From a virus (taxonomy: Duplodnaviria > Caudoviricetes): a DNA stretch of 39,180 nt. The DNA lies in IMG/VR virus record IMGVR_UViG_3300037313_000797, positions 1 through 39,180 of that record. One strand, written 5' to 3'. This document shows positions 253 to 34,617 of this stretch, piece by piece. The first letter of the stretch is position 1. Each line of letters starts with the position of its first letter. The position numbers and the translations under genes were made by a program. Under the pieces are notes generated by a model. That model saw nothing but the letters and a program-made list of their open reading frames with translations. It did not search any database and was not told the DNA's origin.

Positions 253-612
253 TCACTTGTTTTCGAGATTGCTCACTTGCTTGAGGTCCAAGGGGCCGTA
301 CCGAGTCTCAATGAATCCAACAACAACCGAGAGAGCGTTGTCATCGAGTTTCAGCGTTTTCTCGAAAAGCGAAACAAGTAACTGCTCGCGCGTAGATTTT
401 GGAGCTAAAGTGCGGTCGTAGAATAATCTAGATTCCGGCACTTTTAGCGTCTTGGCTAATATCCGCAGATTTTCCGCCTGGGGGACGTTCCCGCGCTCCA
501 TTTTTTGGTAGGTACTTAGGGAAATGCCAACTTTCGCGGAAAACTCTTCTTGAGTCATCTTTCCGCGAAGCTCTCTTAAATTGTCGGCAAAAACTTCCCT
601 AATCGTTTTCAC
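253..612 (-). CDS. CI-like XRE-family HTH repressor
   Basis: N-terminal HTH (NLRELRGKMTQEEFSAKVGISLSTYQKMERG); divergent from a Cro-like gene across an operator region; no S24 peptidase domain. Confidence 0.88.
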   Translation of the reverse strand: MKTIREVFADNLRELRGKMTQEEFSAKVGISLSTYQKMERGNVPQAENLRILAKTLKVPESRLFYDRTLAPKSTREQLLVSLFEKTLKLDDNALSVVVGFIETRYGPLDLKQVSNLENK

Positions 613-620
613 TAGTTAAA

Positions 621-694
621 TTCTACAGCCAAAGATTGGCTATAGAACTCCAAAGTTTGGTTAATTTTCCTTGCAAACAAGCCAAAGTTTGGCT
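621..694. promoter_or_regulatory. Three palindromic operators, core CCAAAG(A/T)TTGG
   Basis: AGCCAAAGATTGGCT 627-641 (extended palindrome 621-647), CCAAAGTTTGG 650-660, AGCCAAAGTTTGGCT 680-694. Confidence 0.85.
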
Positions 695-699
695 AGTAT
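671..699 (+). promoter_or_regulatory. PR-like sigma70 early promoter
   Basis: TTGCAA(671-676)-17 nt-TAGTAT(694-699), with operator 3 in the spacer. Confidence 0.75.
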
Positions 700-709
700 G
701 CTTCTCAGG

Positions 710-943
710 ATGAATGAACGATTCAAACTCAACAGTGAACTGGTCCGGGCGTGGCTCGATAAAGAGTGCAGGAAACAAAGCTTCCTGTCTCGCAGTCTGG
801 CTATTTCTGACACTTCGGTGACGCGAATGCTTGCAGGCGGTTACGTCCCCAAAGAGAGGACCCTAAAGGCTCTAGCTGAGTTGATTGGAGTGAGCACTGA
901 ACAATTGCTCATTCCTAAACCCGAGGCCAAGAGGGCCGGTTAA
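710..943 (+). CDS. Cro-like HTH protein
   Basis: HTH-like (QSFLSRSLAISDTSVTRMLAGGYVPKERTLKALAELIGV); start moved to ATG 710 because the track start lies inside the promoter. Confidence 0.8.
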   Translation: MNERFKLNSELVRAWLDKECRKQSFLSRSLAISDTSVTRMLAGGYVPKERTLKALAELIGVSTEQLLIPKPEAKRAG

Positions 944-2343: not shown

Positions 2344-2820
2344 ATGATGTTTAAGCCACGTCCAAAGGGTTTAGGTCGCGATAACTTCTTGAAGCTCAAT
2401 GACCGCGAAGAAGTCACGGGAGTTTTCAAGGGCGATATCCACACGTTCAAGCGTCACTGGACCGGACAATCAAGTGTTGAATGCACGGGTCCAGAGAGCT
2501 GCGCAGTGTGTGCAAACGATCCTGAGAACAAGCCAGCATTCCGTTTTCGTGTGAACTTTATCACCACGAAAGATGGCCAGTATGTCGCCAAGATCTTTGA
2601 AGGCGGCGGGGAGCTTTATGACACGCTCGCAAATCTTGATCGCAAGTTTAACCTTGCTGACACGGTTGTTGAAATCACACGACGTGGACTTAAGCAGAAT
2701 ACTAAGTATGATGTTCTACCGCTTACGAATCAGCCGATCTCAAAAGAGATGCGATCCAAAATTGATTCAGTCCCGCCGCTTGCCCTGAGTGCCGAAGAGT
2801 CTTCGGACGTTCCGTTTTGA
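2344..2820 (+). CDS. Single-stranded DNA-binding protein (gp32-like, Zn-binding)
   Basis: HW...C...CxxC cluster; acidic tail ending DVPF; follows the exonuclease. Confidence 0.75.
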   Translation: MMFKPRPKGLGRDNFLKLNDREEVTGVFKGDIHTFKRHWTGQSSVECTGPESCAVCANDPENKPAFRFRVNFITTKDGQYVAKIFEGGGELYDTLANLDRKFNLADTVVEITRRGLKQNTKYDVLPLTNQPISKEMRSKIDSVPPLALSAEESSDVPF

Positions 2821-2829
2821 GGTGATGCA

Positions 2830-2931
2830 ATGAAATACTTCAACCCCGGCCTCATGCCGATGGCTCTCTTTGCTGCAGCCGTTGCAATCGCAGTGGTGTG
2901 CTTTGTGATCACTAGCGGGAGAATGGCCTGA
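2830..2931 (+). CDS. 33-aa single-pass membrane peptide
   Basis: SD GAGGTGA; MKYFNPGLMPMALFAAAVAIAVVCFVITSGRMA (below ORF-track cutoff). Confidence 0.6.
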   Translation: MKYFNPGLMPMALFAAAVAIAVVCFVITSGRMA

Positions 2932-2980
2932 ACAATTTAGGCAACTGTAACCTGTAGCTGAATTTAAAGGAGTTTTTTTT

Positions 2981-3289
2981 ATGGGATACGCAGAACAAGA
3001 AGCCGAAGGCCCTAAAATGCTAGCTGAGATTGCGAGACTTAAGGCCGAGGTTGAACGCCTCAAGGGACTAGTTCCACAGAATGCGGACTTGATGATTAAG
3101 AATCACGACCTCTTAGTCGCGCTTGAATGGTATGCCGACAATCGAAACTGGCGCTCAATTACAGACGGTTGTTATCAATACATTGTGATTGATAAATCAG
3201 ATGAGGTTTCAGCCAAGAACCAATCGTTTCCTACAATTAAAACAGCAGGAAAGCGTGCTCGCGAAGCTCTCGGAAGGAACGATAAATGA
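2981..3289 (+). CDS. Hypothetical protein with coiled-coil N-terminus (Ead/Ea22-like architecture)
   Basis: SD AAGGAG; AEIARLKAEVERLK...ALEWYAD...GKRAREAL. Confidence 0.75.
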   Translation: MGYAEQEAEGPKMLAEIARLKAEVERLKGLVPQNADLMIKNHDLLVALEWYADNRNWRSITDGCYQYIVIDKSDEVSAKNQSFPTIKTAGKRAREALGRNDK

Positions 3290-3369
3290 GACTTATTAAA
3301 TTTTTTATAAGTATCCCAGTACGAATCACTCTGTGGCTATTGGCTAAGGCCATGGGTAATCGGATGTGA
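3286..3369 (+). CDS. 27-aa hydrophobic peptide
   Basis: ATGA overlap; MRLIKFFISIPVRITLWLLAKAMGNRM. Confidence 0.45.
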   Translation: MRLIKFFISIPVRITLWLLAKAMGNRM

Positions 3370-3420
3370 CATTCTCACACAATGTAACGTTAATTAGTAA
3401 GCAGTAAATAGGAGTAGTGT

Positions 3421-3729
3421 ATGGCAGGAAGAAAAACGAACGAAGAGAGACAAGCGATTATCGACAAGATCACAGAATCAAGAAAGGAAGGCATGTCCTT
3501 GACTGATGCTGCGGCCTCTTGTGGAATCTCTGATAAGACATATTACCTTTGGATGCGAAAAGGCTCTAAGGCTGCGCCAAAGCAATCGCAACCTAAACAG
3601 GCAAAGAAAAGTTCGTTTCTCACAGTTTCAGTGCCGGAGGACAAGATGCCCTTCGTTTTTATCATGGGGAGTTCAGCTGATGTTCATGGAATTTTTGATC
3701 GGCTCTCTCAAATTTCGAGAAGGGGATAG
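3421..3729 (+). CDS. IS66 TnpA-like HTH protein
   Basis: SD AGGAG; GMSLTDAAASCGISDKTYYLWMRK HTH, Lys/Gln/Pro linker, then F-x-x-V-x-V as in IS66 Orf1. Confidence 0.65.
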   Translation: MAGRKTNEERQAIIDKITESRKEGMSLTDAAASCGISDKTYYLWMRKGSKAAPKQSQPKQAKKSSFLTVSVPEDKMPFVFIMGSSADVHGIFDRLSQISRRG

Positions 3730-3731
3730 TC

Positions 3732-4094
3732 ATGTCAAAGGGGGCAATTATCAGATGTTTCTTGGACGCAGATATGCGCAACGGTCACGATGGACTTGCG
3801 GAGCTTGCGAAGAAAGAGAACATCGATGTGAAGAAGATTAGTCGCGGTGAGTTTGTTGTGTTTGTTAACTCAGCAAAGGACCGCGTGAAAGTTTATGCCG
3901 CATCAAACGTGATCGCATACATGAAATCATCCAAGGGTCAAAAGATTGATCTGCGCGTGATCAGAGAGATTCCAAGAGCATTTAACGGCGGCGGGATTTC
4001 TTATGATGAGACGATTGAAAAGATGCTGAGTTTAAAGATTGCGCAAAAGCCTAGGATTTCTCCGCTTCAGGCGGCAAAGGCTATGCGTGCATAA
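3732..4094 (+). CDS. IS66 TnpB (Orf2)-like protein
   Basis: DMRNGHDGL and FVVFVNSAKDRVKV resemble the IS66 TnpB motifs DMRKGFDGL and FxFxNRxRDRxKxL. Confidence 0.8.
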   Translation: MSKGAIIRCFLDADMRNGHDGLAELAKKENIDVKKISRGEFVVFVNSAKDRVKVYAASNVIAYMKSSKGQKIDLRVIREIPRAFNGGGISYDETIEKMLSLKIAQKPRISPLQAAKAMRA

Positions 4095-4186
4095 AGTTCT
4101 AGCGAGGGGATAGAAGCAGACCCGTTAGATCGGGCGCAGGTTCGGATCGCTACCAAATGCCTGCGCCTGTATTTTTAGAGGTGAAC

Positions 4187-4330
4187 ATGAGCCAAGAAGA
4201 CTTTAATGAATTGTTAGAAATCTTCCGAAAACTCAAACAATGGCGCGATGAGAAAGACGCTGCCGAACAAGAAGCCTTGATTAGAAGCGGGGCGCCACTT
4301 GTTAACCAGGAGCATCCAAGAGTCCACTAA
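4187..4330 (+). CDS. 47-aa protein coupled to the integrase (RDF candidate)
   Basis: SD GAGGTG; MSQEDFNELLEIFRKLKQWRDEK...; TAATG overlap with the integrase start. Confidence 0.7.
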   Translation: MSQEDFNELLEIFRKLKQWRDEKDAAEQEALIRSGAPLVNQEHPRVH

Positions 4331-5937
4331 TGAACGGTCCTGAATGGCTTGGTGATAGCTCAGACGCGATTGCAATTCTTCGTGTCAGCTCGCACCGGCA
4401 AAGAGACGGCGTATCCCATGAGGCTCAAGAAAAAGAGATCAGGGATTACTGCACCTTCAACGGCCTGAATCTCGTTCGGGTTGTAAAGCTCATTGAGTCG
4501 GCTTTTGATTCAGATGAGCGAAAGAAGTTTGATGCTGCCATGACCGGCGCGTTCAAGGCCCATATCCGCCATGTCCTTTTTTACATGTATGATCGTGAGT
4601 CAAGAAACCTGACTCACGCTGAGCGAAACGAAAAACTCGTTAAGGCTGGTATCTTTGTCATTCACTACGTGCGTGATCGCAAGGTGTTACACCAAGGAAG
4701 TTCTGACTCAGATTTCTTTATCCGCGATATTTCTGCGGCAACAAATAAGCATTACAGCAGAAGCCTGAGCACTAAGATCAATGACTCAATGGTACAAAAG
4801 GCTGAGAACGGTTGGTATCCCTCGAATCGCCCGCCTCTTGGTTACACGACAAAACGTGAGAATGATGAGAATGGGAGAGAGCTTAGACGCGGTCTTGCTT
4901 ATGTCATTCCTGATCCGGACACGCGTAAGGTGAAATGGGTCCAGATGGAGTTTGAACTACGCGCTCGCGGTCTGAGTTACGAGACAATTCGCAAGACCGT
5001 GATTGCATCGGGCTTGCTCACACAGAAAGAAATCAAACAGTACAAGATCGGCACGATTGAGTACCGGATTAAGAACCCTTTCTATGAGGGTTACTTTCTT
5101 TGGAAGGGCAAGCGTTACAAAGGAAAGCACGAGCTGATCATCCCGCCAAAAACTATTCAGCTTGCCAGAGACAATGCTGGCAAAGGGAAGGTCGCACGCA
5201 CGCAAGATGAGTTTGGACTTTTTGCCGGTGGATGGCTCAAGTGCGCCGAGTGTGAGTGCTTGATTACTTATGACCCGAAAACCAAGGTCTATAAGAACGG
5301 CAAGACGACAACCTATCACTACTATCGCTGTTCAAACGGCAAGGGCTTTCATGCTCGCAAGACGTTCATCACTGAGCAGGATATTTGGGAGCAGTTCGGA
5401 CAAGTGATTGATCTCATCTCAATATCTCGCGAGACGGCAGAGCGTCTTGCCGAAGGTCTTAACGTCACGCATCGCAAAGTTGCAGCGGCGCATCTCAAGA
5501 AGATTGATGAGCTGAAAGAAGAACTCGCGTCACTCACTGAGCGCGAGGACCGCGCATATGACGACATGCTTTCGGGGCTCTTAGATGCCGAAGGTTTCAA
5601 GCGTCAACGCGAGAGAATTAGAAATGAGCGCGTGCGTCTTAGTGATGAACTTGAGCGTTCAAAGTCGGCCGTAAGCGGCAAAAACCTAGTGTCTGTGTCG
5701 GCAATTATCGAACTCGCTATGTCCGCGAAATCTATCTACTTGTCGCGAACTCCGCGAGAACGCCGAGAATTCTTAGAATTGATACTATCTAACCCGAGTT
5801 TAAGAGGGCTAACTGTTGAATATACTTTGAAAAAGCATTGGGATGAGTTGATCAAAATGCGGGGAGTCAATGAGATGGTGGTCCCACCAGGAAGTTTTTC
5901 CGACTTATTCCCCGCGTTTCCAGACGAGAATGACTAA
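4330..5937 (+). CDS. Large serine recombinase (integrase)
   Basis: Catalytic LRVSS..Q...S...Q and DRESR; recombinase domain (PPLGY, NPFYEG); zinc ribbon CAEC...YYRC; coiled coil. Confidence 0.95.
   Translation: MNGPEWLGDSSDAIAILRVSSHRQRDGVSHEAQEKEIRDYCTFNGLNLVRVVKLIESAFDSDERKKFDAAMTGAFKAHIRHVLFYMYDRESRNLTHAERNEKLVKAGIFVIHYVRDRKVLHQGSSDSDFFIRDISAATNKHYSRSLSTKINDSMVQKAENGWYPSNRPPLGYTTKRENDENGRELRRGLAYVIPDPDTRKVKWVQMEFELRARGLSYETIRKTVIASGLLTQKEIKQYKIGTIEYRIKNPFYEGYFLWKGKRYKGKHELIIPPKTIQLARDNAGKGKVARTQDEFGLFAGGWLKCAECECLITYDPKTKVYKNGKTTTYHYYRCSNGKGFHARKTFITEQDIWEQFGQVIDLISISRETAERLAEGLNVTHRKVAAAHLKKIDELKEELASLTEREDRAYDDMLSGLLDAEGFKRQRERIRNERVRLSDELERSKSAVSGKNLVSVSAIIELAMSAKSIYLSRTPRERREFLELILSNPSLRGLTVEYTLKKHWDELIKMRGVNEMVVPPGSFSDLFPAFPDEND
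5876..5892 (-). other. Putative attP core resembling a tRNA 3' end
   Basis: Minus strand reads TCCTGGTGGGACCACCA (T-stem, acceptor strand, CCA); plus strand is the dyad TGGTGG-TC-CCACCA. Confidence 0.6.
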
Positions 5938-7996: not shown

Positions 7997-9286
7997 ATGG
8001 CACAGATTCCTGTAACTTTAACAGTTGACGATAGCGCGCTTCCAGTAGGCCCAAAAGGAGACCCAGGCGCACAAGGCATTCCAGGTGAAAAAGGAGATAA
8101 GGGAGACAAAGGAGACAAGGGTGATAAGGGAGACCAAGGTCCTCCAGGTCTACCGGGCACAGGCTCTGGCGGTCTCTCAATTCCTGGCGTTGCATCCATT
8201 GCGATCAACGGAAACGTCATGACGCTGAACATGACTGACAAATCCACGCTTGCATTCGCTGGAACGTTGACTGCTGCACCTCCTGTGCTTCCAGATGGCG
8301 TTGCACCAAACAGCATGGACGTTGTGAACGTCGCACCAGGAACTGCATTCCCATCTCTTGGATCTGCTCTCTTGGCTGTTAAAGATGGTGGAACGATTTA
8401 CATGGCAGCGGGCATGTATCAAGAGTGTGTAGATCTTGACCCTGCGGTGTTTCCAAATGGTCTGACCATCATCGGTGCTGGTGCTTATAAGACCGTGATG
8501 AACGGCAGAAGAGGCGTTGGTGCTGGTTACCGACTCTCTTGGGGCAAGGGCATTATTCATAACCGCTTGACCAAGATTTTGCTTAAAAACATCGGCTTTA
8601 TCAACGGTGGCGGCGGTGACGCAGTCTCTGATGCCGAAGCAGGTGTTTACTCTGAGCAAGCTTCTGGAACAATGACGATCGATTCTTGCGCGTTCGATGG
8701 AAACGAAAACGGTATCTTTACCCGAAGCGGTCCATTCACGCTCACAGTGAATAACTGTGACTTTGGTAAGAATCAGCCAAATGGGCTTTCTGATGGCCAG
8801 TCGCATGACATGTATGTAAGTGCTGATAATTTCATTTCGACGAATAACCGCCATTACAACTGCATGTACGGTCACGGCTTGAAGTCTCGTTCGAAGAACG
8901 TCACGACAAGCGGTAACTATTTTGCGCACGTTGGTGGACGTTGCGTAGATATCTCAGATGGAACGGCAACGGTTTGGGAGAGCACGAATGATACGTTCAC
9001 CGACCGCGCTGGTGCATCGACCAATATGATGGGTTACGCTGACGAAAGCTCCAAGAACGGTGCAGCGGGTGGCGTGATTAAAAACGCAAGAATTCACGTC
9101 TCGCGCTATGCGACGGTCTTTTGGGCGGGAGCTGGTACTCTTCAGTTCGTAGATCCAATCCTCACGGCTTATTCGAACGGAACACCAGGTCCATCGATTG
9201 TGCTTAAAGGATCGGTGACGGGACTTCCTACGCTTCCTACCCCAATCGGCGGACCACTGCCTGCGCCAGTGTCTCCATTGATGTAA
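7997..9286 (+). CDS. Collagen-repeat protein with right-handed beta-helix (pectin-lyase-like) domain
   Basis: About 12 Gly-X-Y triplets from GPKGDP; then DGGTIYMAAGMY, CAFDGNENGI, SHDMYV, GHGLKSR; SD AAGGA. Confidence 0.85.
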   Translation: MAQIPVTLTVDDSALPVGPKGDPGAQGIPGEKGDKGDKGDKGDKGDQGPPGLPGTGSGGLSIPGVASIAINGNVMTLNMTDKSTLAFAGTLTAAPPVLPDGVAPNSMDVVNVAPGTAFPSLGSALLAVKDGGTIYMAAGMYQECVDLDPAVFPNGLTIIGAGAYKTVMNGRRGVGAGYRLSWGKGIIHNRLTKILLKNIGFINGGGGDAVSDAEAGVYSEQASGTMTIDSCAFDGNENGIFTRSGPFTLTVNNCDFGKNQPNGLSDGQSHDMYVSADNFISTNNRHYNCMYGHGLKSRSKNVTTSGNYFAHVGGRCVDISDGTATVWESTNDTFTDRAGASTNMMGYADESSKNGAAGGVIKNARIHVSRYATVFWAGAGTLQFVDPILTAYSNGTPGPSIVLKGSVTGLPTLPTPIGGPLPAPVSPLM

Positions 9287-34528: not shown

Positions 34529-34617
34529 TGGCGGAGAGCTAAGGACTCGAACCTTACTGCCTTTCAGCAGCCATCTTGTTAGCAACAAGCGATAGTACCC
34601 TGACTATTTAGCTCTCC
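34529..34617 (-). tRNA. tRNA-Ser(GCT)
   Basis: Acceptor GGAGAGC/GCTCTCC, G discriminator, encoded CCA; T-arm TAAGG-TTCGAGT-CCTTA; anticodon loop TTGCTAA; long variable arm CTGC/GCAG. Confidence 0.9.

Follow-up and report, generated by a model that had tools for sequence, protein, structure and literature searches.

A transposase-free gene pair related to the IS66 accessory genes tnpA and tnpB in the early region of uncultured phages

The stretch of DNA analysed here (39,180 nt, IMG/VR record IMGVR_UViG_3300037313_000797; hereafter the window) is a complete circular temperate phage record with a 127-nt terminal repeat, and the sequencing runs containing it are soil and rhizosphere metagenomes, with no RNA dataset among them. 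In addition to CI and Cro it encodes a PD-(D/E)XK exonuclease, an SSB-like gene, a large serine integrase and a replication initiator, and its terminase, portal and capsid genes lie on the opposite strand. The terminase has 22-31% identity to unrelated phages only, and comparisons of the terminase, integrase and exonuclease reached no host assignment. Two small intact genes, here called A and B, lie 2 nt apart in the early region (Table 1); the coordinates, reading frames and good ribosome-binding sites given for them in a first-pass annotation were borne out, as was their location next to the serine integrase, with a 47-aa ORF in between. The integrase gene sits inside the rightward early operon on the Cro strand, between the SSB-like gene and the replication initiator and away from the repressor. 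No sigma-70 consensus promoter was found before A in the window; the leaders of several relatives appear by eye to be of the TTGACA type. Elsewhere in the genome, a tRNA-Ser(GCT) gene (34529-34617, minus strand) lies immediately upstream of the terminase gene, and positions 7997-9286, among early/middle genes and opposite in strand to the structural genes, encode a protein of 429 aa that has collagen-like repeats and probably a beta-helix body.

Table 1. Features of the A-B locus and its surroundings in the window
Feature	Position	Strand	Remarks
CI/Cro	253-612, 671-943		CI HTH and Cro differ from those of L002
Second box copy	2927..2956	+	left border of the segment at about 2949-3380
GTGACA-N11-TGTAAC box	3366..3388	+	overlaps the TGTGA-N5-TCACA palindrome and the stop codon of a 27-aa ORF
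Ribosome-binding site of A	3408..3420	+	AGGAG 6 nt before A; purine-rich
ORF A	3421..3729	+	102 aa; TnpA-like; HTH_Tnp_1 match, structure model
ORF B	3732..4094	+	120 aa; D14-MRNGHDGL; TnpB_IS66 match; ribosome-binding site AGGGG 5 nt before B
Two-hairpin segment with T-run	4095..4184	+	z -2.07; 8/200 shuffles fold as well
47-aa ORF	4187..4330	+	coupled to the integrase start; no PHROG match; no family match
Large serine integrase	4330..5937	+	beside the pair in this lineage alone; outside the module

On profile evidence, B is genuinely homologous to IS66 TnpB, though divergent, and belongs to a separate family. The TnpB_IS66 match anticipated in the first-pass annotation was recovered, though under the curated cut-offs (PF05717, E 4.4e-4 and 20.5 bits against 26.6; NF033819, 22.2 bits against 50). 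These two TnpB models were matched by 8/8 members in one set, and NF033819 was matched at E<=0.01, under its cut-off, by 94 of the 149 B members aligned from the best 150 of 502 clusters. A B profile aligned with 24 transposon TnpBs at an hhalign probability of 96% (E 5e-9, 71 columns) and, when run over 301 Bacteroidota genomes, gave 15 weak matches of at most 34 bits (11 canonical TnpB, 9 beside TnpC); B family members score 77-173 bits with the same profile. Searching 1.84 billion representative sequences with phmmer returned 502 clusters at E<=0.001 and 248 at 1e-10; at least 248 clusters, defined at 50% identity, make up the family. Common to B and transposon TnpB are D14, R16, G18, L22, F44, N46, K53 and K/R65, and near-invariant within the B family are H19, G21, L22, G39, F44, N46, K53, P81 and F84. 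In the alignment of 149 sequences from the best 150 of 502 clusters, N46 is present in every member, the other eight of these residues are kept in 136-148, and H19 (136/149) is family-specific. The motifs G..L..KRLE...F.W and QL..LL.G.D, near-invariant in canonical TnpBs (17-24 of 24), are absent from the column counts of the 149 B members. A tree built from 46 phage and 24 transposon sequences separates the two groups, one on each side of a long branch (100/100); the tree is built on few columns, has mostly Pseudomonadota on its transposon side and is unrooted, so the direction of descent implied by calling the pair domesticated is not readable from it.

Many B members (P0011, P0015, P0018, L042 and L060 among them) have a variable extension of 20-45 residues before the core, with start sites as predicted; longer or fused forms were absent among 7,994 candidates, which is weak evidence. 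One study describes beta-clamp motifs in some IS66 TnpB or TnpC (PMC3971601); a loose pattern for this motif occurred at no conserved position in 14 of the 149 B proteins (best 150 of 502 clusters) and in none of 24 canonical TnpBs. The AlphaFold2 model of B is alpha/beta (pLDDT 92), with strands at residues 5-10, 40-45, 51-56 and 60-65. No clear match to this model came from Foldseek in the PDB, from BFVD or from VIA-align, whose top result was the SPT6 tandem SH2 (Z 4.5; rmsd 4.7 across 94 residues); these outcomes point neither to a new fold nor to a different one. A sequence search of the PDB found nothing. A structure search of the ESM Atlas placed a TnpB_IS66 cluster first, at a TM of 0.50/0.56 that is under the tool's threshold and involves a low-confidence model, and it lists near B, at 0.88, a cluster of 65 proteins that are all viral and carry the label TnpB_IS66, which is a lead only.

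Protein A comprises a three-helix HTH (residues 7-48), a basic linker and a C-terminal tail (about 78-101) made of a hydrophobic stretch, a glycine and a helix (model pLDDT 91; helices 7-22, 27-33, 38-48 and 85-101). It matches HTH_Tnp_1 without reaching the curated cut-off (E 2.6e-4, 21.6 bits against 24.1) and, far under cut-off, the IS66 TnpA model NF047595 (E 0.0014); a fold search with the model gave generic HTH matches only (Z<=5.4). An A profile aligned with transposon TnpA at 94% hhalign probability over the 33 columns of the HTH; the two tails, alike in layout by eye (beta-hairpin-helix), have a profile probability of 0.2%. IS3 OrfA-type HTHs were matched by 12 of 46 A proteins and two IS66 TnpA models by 4/46 and 4/46. 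Since the tail is unalignable and IS3 OrfA-type matches are the commoner, descent of A from TnpA is argued from the HTH and gene position. The N-terminal domain varies across 55 A proteins, with HTH_Tnp_1 in 19, a Recombinase-type domain in 2, other HTH families in 8, DUF7626 in 1 and no match in 25; 7 of the 19 PF01527 matches are above cut-off, and this HTH type is not IS66-specific. The two Recombinase-type cases are A of L018 (7600-7899) and L003 (7696-8004), whose N-terminal domain matches Recombinase (PF07508) of large serine integrases rather than HTH_Tnp_1, and the HTH appears by eye to be doubled in A of L042, L051 and L065. Both A and B proteins are basic (median pI 9.9).

The pair recurs widely. 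A degenerate B pattern, which catches 92/149 members, returned 14 viral, 64 metagenomic and 2 genomic stretches, of which 14, 57 and 1, respectively, were confirmed with the B profile. A later search added two further loci (L148 and L150), 19 of its 26 rows being dropped; among the pattern matches, those dropped for want of confirmation by the B profile were L007, L029, L030, L037, L048, L066, L068, L082 and L086, and P0016 was dropped as a repeat protein. Without the two later loci, and with those from separate searches, there are 79 loci including the window, or 60 after duplicate removal, and 14 partial or doubtful loci were left out of the paired alignments and the tree. As the pattern fixes H19 it cannot return canonical TnpB, a gap that the reciprocal genome search covers for two phyla only. 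About 18 carriers are IMG/VR records, and the others are metagenome contigs called phage-like by their neighbours. An A-like gene lies upstream of B in 56/59 judgeable loci (immediately so in 50, with a small gene in between in 6), a count in which 24 A-like matches were profile seeds and so match by construction; the A profile was unmatched upstream in L005, L011 and L069. Across 47 adjacent pairs the A-B gap ranges from -23 to +20 nt, and each locus has one B. By the pattern, only 1 of 185,579 cellular genomes carries a copy, beside portal and terminase genes. This only GTDB copy (L087, contig C54 of G018) sits in an Emcibacteraceae MAG, where its 100-kb contig also encodes a portal, a terminase, a ligase and an exonuclease; the contig is probably that of a phage binned with the MAG, so the copy is not host evidence. 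Plasmids gave no family-level match to B, tblastn with two B proteins found nothing in cultured phages, and PHROGs had no match for the pair. Replication or recombination genes occur within 4.5 kb of the pair in 25 of the 48 loci scanned for larger neighbours, an early-region context that was counted without a baseline and that any small early gene might show. Small serine resolvases lie within 2.5 kb of the pair in two of these 48 loci (L058 3388-3987 and L081 1975-2547).

The first-pass annotation had noted that no TnpC transposase and no paired IS66 ends accompany the pair, and both observations extend beyond the window. A TnpC profile searched in six frames found no match in any of the 79 loci, window included (best E 0.44), at least 1.6 kb of downstream sequence being present in 33/60 loci; in the control, 25 of 31 canonical loci were positive, 14 of which are in the model. 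PF03050 (TnpC) was absent from 21 whole records, 8 of them at least 90% complete (19 carrier virus records including the window, one non-member record and one MAG), and rve transposases from 15 carrier records. None of 43 loci has IS66-like tips on both sides (a tip lies only upstream in 2 and only downstream in 5), and 11/14 canonical elements show the left tip; the tip-like GTAAGC at position 3397 of the window has no partner after B. Where substitutions could be counted, B is conserved: dN/dS (Nei-Gojobori counts with our own script, most pairs being saturated at synonymous sites) was 0.06 for L053/L058, 0.12, 0.12 and 0.13 for three pairs among L027, L043 and L079 that are not independent, and 0.93 on four changes for L038/L051. 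Between the window and the near-identical phage L002, A is identical, and the 119 codons compared in B differ by 5 synonymous changes and no non-synonymous one; the last residue of B is also changed. The pair is therefore an intact, transposase-free two-gene phage module under purifying selection. Together with the homology and the separate branch of the B tree, the absence of TnpC and the low dN/dS uphold the first-pass view of a phage-borne relative of the IS66 accessory genes, whose closest homologues lie outside complete IS66 elements and on which selection is not relaxed.

These results bear on two explanations in terms of transposition. If the pair were what remains of an IS66 insertion in decay after the loss of tnpC, one could understand why both genes score under the family cut-offs; the hundreds of clusters with invariant residues, the low dN/dS, the single separate branch and the lack of any TnpC remnant in 79 loci make this vanishingly improbable, and we rejected it. 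The pair could instead help or inhibit a host IS66 transposase in trans, or be a non-autonomous element moved by one, as its homology and gene order would allow. We consider this unlikely, given the tip counts above, the lack of G..L..KRLE...F.W and QL..LL.G.D in B, and the long branch between the two groups.

The pair and the integrase are adjacent and co-oriented in the window, in L002 and in contigs of runs X4 and X5. Among 15 carrier records, a large serine integrase was found only in the near-identical phage, the other two PF07508 matches being A genes, and a tyrosine recombinase in one; 5/6 near-complete carrier records lack either integrase type. The reverse case is L161/G440, a complete 40-kb phage whose integrase is 77% identical and preceded by the 47-aa ORF; its genome has no B, and its similarity to the window begins at the stop codon of B. 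The suggestion in the first-pass annotation that A and B form an accessory or directionality complex for the integrase fails on these two grounds, carriers without a large serine integrase and an integrase without the pair. The adjacency and the two A proteins with a Recombinase-type HTH would fit such a role, which we nevertheless regard as very improbable. A better candidate for the directionality factor may be the 47-aa ORF, which in L161 (3858-4001) is 72% identical and, in both phages, overlaps the integrase start. The two-hairpin segment is also kept in this phage (L161 3217-3308, 79% to window 4093-4181; one change in the second stem is clearly both-sided) and, because L161 lacks the pair, is not part of the A-B module. 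It is predicted to be terminator-like or a regulatory RNA upstream of the integrase; Rfam matched nothing in window 2800-4400, and a terminator scan did not pick up the segment.

Upstream of A, the palindrome TGTGACATTCTCACA that the first-pass annotation had pointed out is present at 3365-3379. As a conserved operator, TGTGA-N5-TCACA was rejected: it has 3 matches at <=1 mismatch where 1.35 are expected, 14/100 shuffles reach 3, it is not kept before A in L002, and an exact match occurs in 1/88 loci. It overlaps a different element, one of the ACA-N11-(T/A)GT(A/C)AC boxes that follow stop codons of small early genes in the phage lineage of the window (the window has 2 copies, L002 and L162 have 3, and one is in common with the run X3 contig). 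The segment at 2949-3380, containing two small genes, is swapped for two others in L002 (6968-7649), in L162 and in the run X4 contig, and its borders fall in boxes overlapping stop codons; the run X3 contig has only window 2937-2977 in common and then another gene. The window and L002 are 94-98% identical elsewhere and differ in the CI HTH, Cro and the operators (window 253-943; L002 4142-4848), which in the window are AGCCAAAG(A/T)TTGGCT repeats; the two are likely a heteroimmune pair. The boxes are unchanged between the two phages while CI, Cro and the operators differ and A is identical. Since they stay fixed in this way and mark the swap borders, the box is a candidate site for A, in a pattern defined after the fact from the window itself and in a genome with other regulators. 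Taken alone, the boxes are candidate operator or cassette-exchange sites. They were seen in this lineage only and in no other carrier; across 36 loci no shared or repeated leader motif was found, the two that beat all shuffles being self-matches, and inverted repeats in A leaders are barely above shuffles (6.1 vs 5.5).

The boxes recall the PeSLs of T4-type phages, which are short repeated regulatory cassettes that drive shuffling of small genes (PMC2839356). Like them, the boxes are short repeated intergenic elements bordering exchanged small genes; unlike PeSLs, which are strong promoters and terminators (PMC2839356), the boxes are known from sequence alone and from this lineage. The pair might be an accessory of phage recombination or small-gene cassette exchange, holding or pairing DNA sites in the manner expected at transposon ends, with phage enzymes doing the chemistry. 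Its ancestry in transposition, the ERF, Rad52, Gp157 or AAA_24 genes nearby in 12/48 loci, the start and end of the swapped segment at repeated boxes and the T4-type precedent (PMC2839356) all point this way. We hold the idea to be rather doubtful, as there is no fixed partner (the commonest neighbour family after A occurs in 9/60 loci), the boxes are confined to one lineage, and shuffling at repeats needs no dedicated protein.

The reading that we prefer, at a probability of roughly 45%, is that A and B are an early-expressed DNA-binding module in which A supplies specificity through a swappable HTH and B is the conserved partner. The two proteins would form a DNA-binding complex, likely made early in infection; the HTH of A would pick the DNA site, and B would regulate or organise early phage (or host) DNA. 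On the simplest version, an ancestral job of A and B on DNA has been kept and is used for early regulation or DNA organisation. That A binds DNA is expected from its predicted HTH fold. Its conserved tail probably contacts B, or a second A, because the tail and the coupling to B persist across phages that have exchanged the HTH end. In the element list of the model, the conserved polar residues of B are placed where strands 1-3 end and helix 1 starts, which suggests that D14, R16, H19, N46 and K53 may form one phosphate- or DNA-binding patch. A is much more variable than B (median identity 20% and 33%) and pairwise identities of the two do not covary (Spearman -0.06; 383/500 permutations as high); a complex prediction of B (1-108) with the A tail (58-102) scored 0.01 in a run without folded controls and was taken neither as support nor as an objection.

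Type II toxin-antitoxin operons consist of two small coupled genes, the HTH gene first, with a variable N-terminal DNA-binding domain and a conserved tail. The phage pair is similar in layout, in its variable HTH and in its short conserved tail, and could be a toxin-antitoxin-like or host-takeover pair. B would then be a small, basic enzyme, perhaps a nuclease with H19, N46, K53, R16 and D14 as the residues it uses, and A its autoregulating neutraliser. The order and coupling of the genes, the greater variability of A with its exchangeable DNA-binding domain, the family-specific H19 and the invariant N46 (149 B members, best 150 of 502 clusters) would suit such a system. Unlike type II toxin-antitoxin pairs, however, this one is nearly absent from cellular genomes, the pattern that catches 92/149 members giving a single copy in 185,579, beside a portal and a terminase, and it had no family-level plasmid match. 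Addiction also has little to act on, as 5/6 near-complete carriers are without either integrase type. An extra gene separates A and B in 6/59 loci, A is basic and not acidic, and B had no match in PADLOC, nor a toxin family match in Pfam, NCBIfam or PADLOC beyond one stray match in 149 members. We consider this reading, which the first-pass annotation had raised together with an anti-defence role, possible but doubtful.

Set beside canonical IS66 (tnpA-tnpB-tnpC; comparison set of 31 loci, L088-L118, and 15 loci, L119-L133, with TnpA models NF047593 and NF047595), the phage pair has in common an HTH gene followed by a TnpB gene, their coupling, their sizes and a basic pI, and, within TnpB, a core of D-x-R-x-G, L, F-x-N, K and a later K/R over about 70 residues. 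It differs in having neither tnpC nor terminal repeats, in the H19, G39, IP..F and YD.AL peculiar to B, in the lack of KRLE..F.W and QL..LL.G.D, and in an A tail that is shorter and unalignable behind an exchangeable HTH. The phage pair is single-copy in phage early regions, whereas canonical IS66 is multicopy in chromosomes. The pair thus resembles the IS66 tnpA-tnpB unit in layout and core residues and is not an IS66 element. The neighbourhood survey proposed in the first-pass annotation has shown its observation to be real and general, with the pair lacking TnpC across 79 loci; its link to the integrase is not. The ISBst12 group of IS66 has a single ORF, and its member ISDge4 transposes (PMC12898284); on that description TnpC is separable from TnpA and TnpB there too, and the phage pair, helpers without a transposase, is the mirror image of a transposase without helpers. 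The same 2026 paper calls the IS66 mechanism insufficiently characterized (PMC12898284). A full-text literature search, with a coverage mostly outside subscription journals, found no transposase-free IS66 TnpA/TnpB in phages. Being under the Pfam and NCBIfam cut-offs and without a PHROG, the pair will in practice be mistaken for transposon debris or overlooked.

IS66 TnpA and TnpB are treated as meaningless without TnpC; Han and colleagues reportedly found in 2001 that all three IS679 genes are needed for transposition, and we know of no settled account of the job that TnpA and TnpB do together. A large selected phage family that keeps the coupling of the two genes and drops the transposase and ends argues that the pair has a TnpC-independent activity, which an insertion-sequence specialist would find surprising. 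The family also splits TnpB into a shared core and a C-terminal part peculiar to transposons, and the motifs missing from B, KRLE..F.W and QL..LL.G.D, may be the TnpC-facing part of transposon TnpB. A more speculative proposal, to which we give only a minor share of belief, is that TnpA/TnpB was originally a free-standing modular DNA-targeting effector of uncultured phages and was later recruited by IS66 transposases. Equally tentative is the form that it might take, an exchangeable HTH reader with a small conserved enzyme or clamp of an as yet unsolved fold, used against or within the host. The phage pair lets the IS66 helpers be studied apart from transposition and offers a handle on the role of TnpB, here known from sequence alone; if the proposal of a free-standing effector is true, the phage family would reveal the biochemical job of IS66 TnpB.
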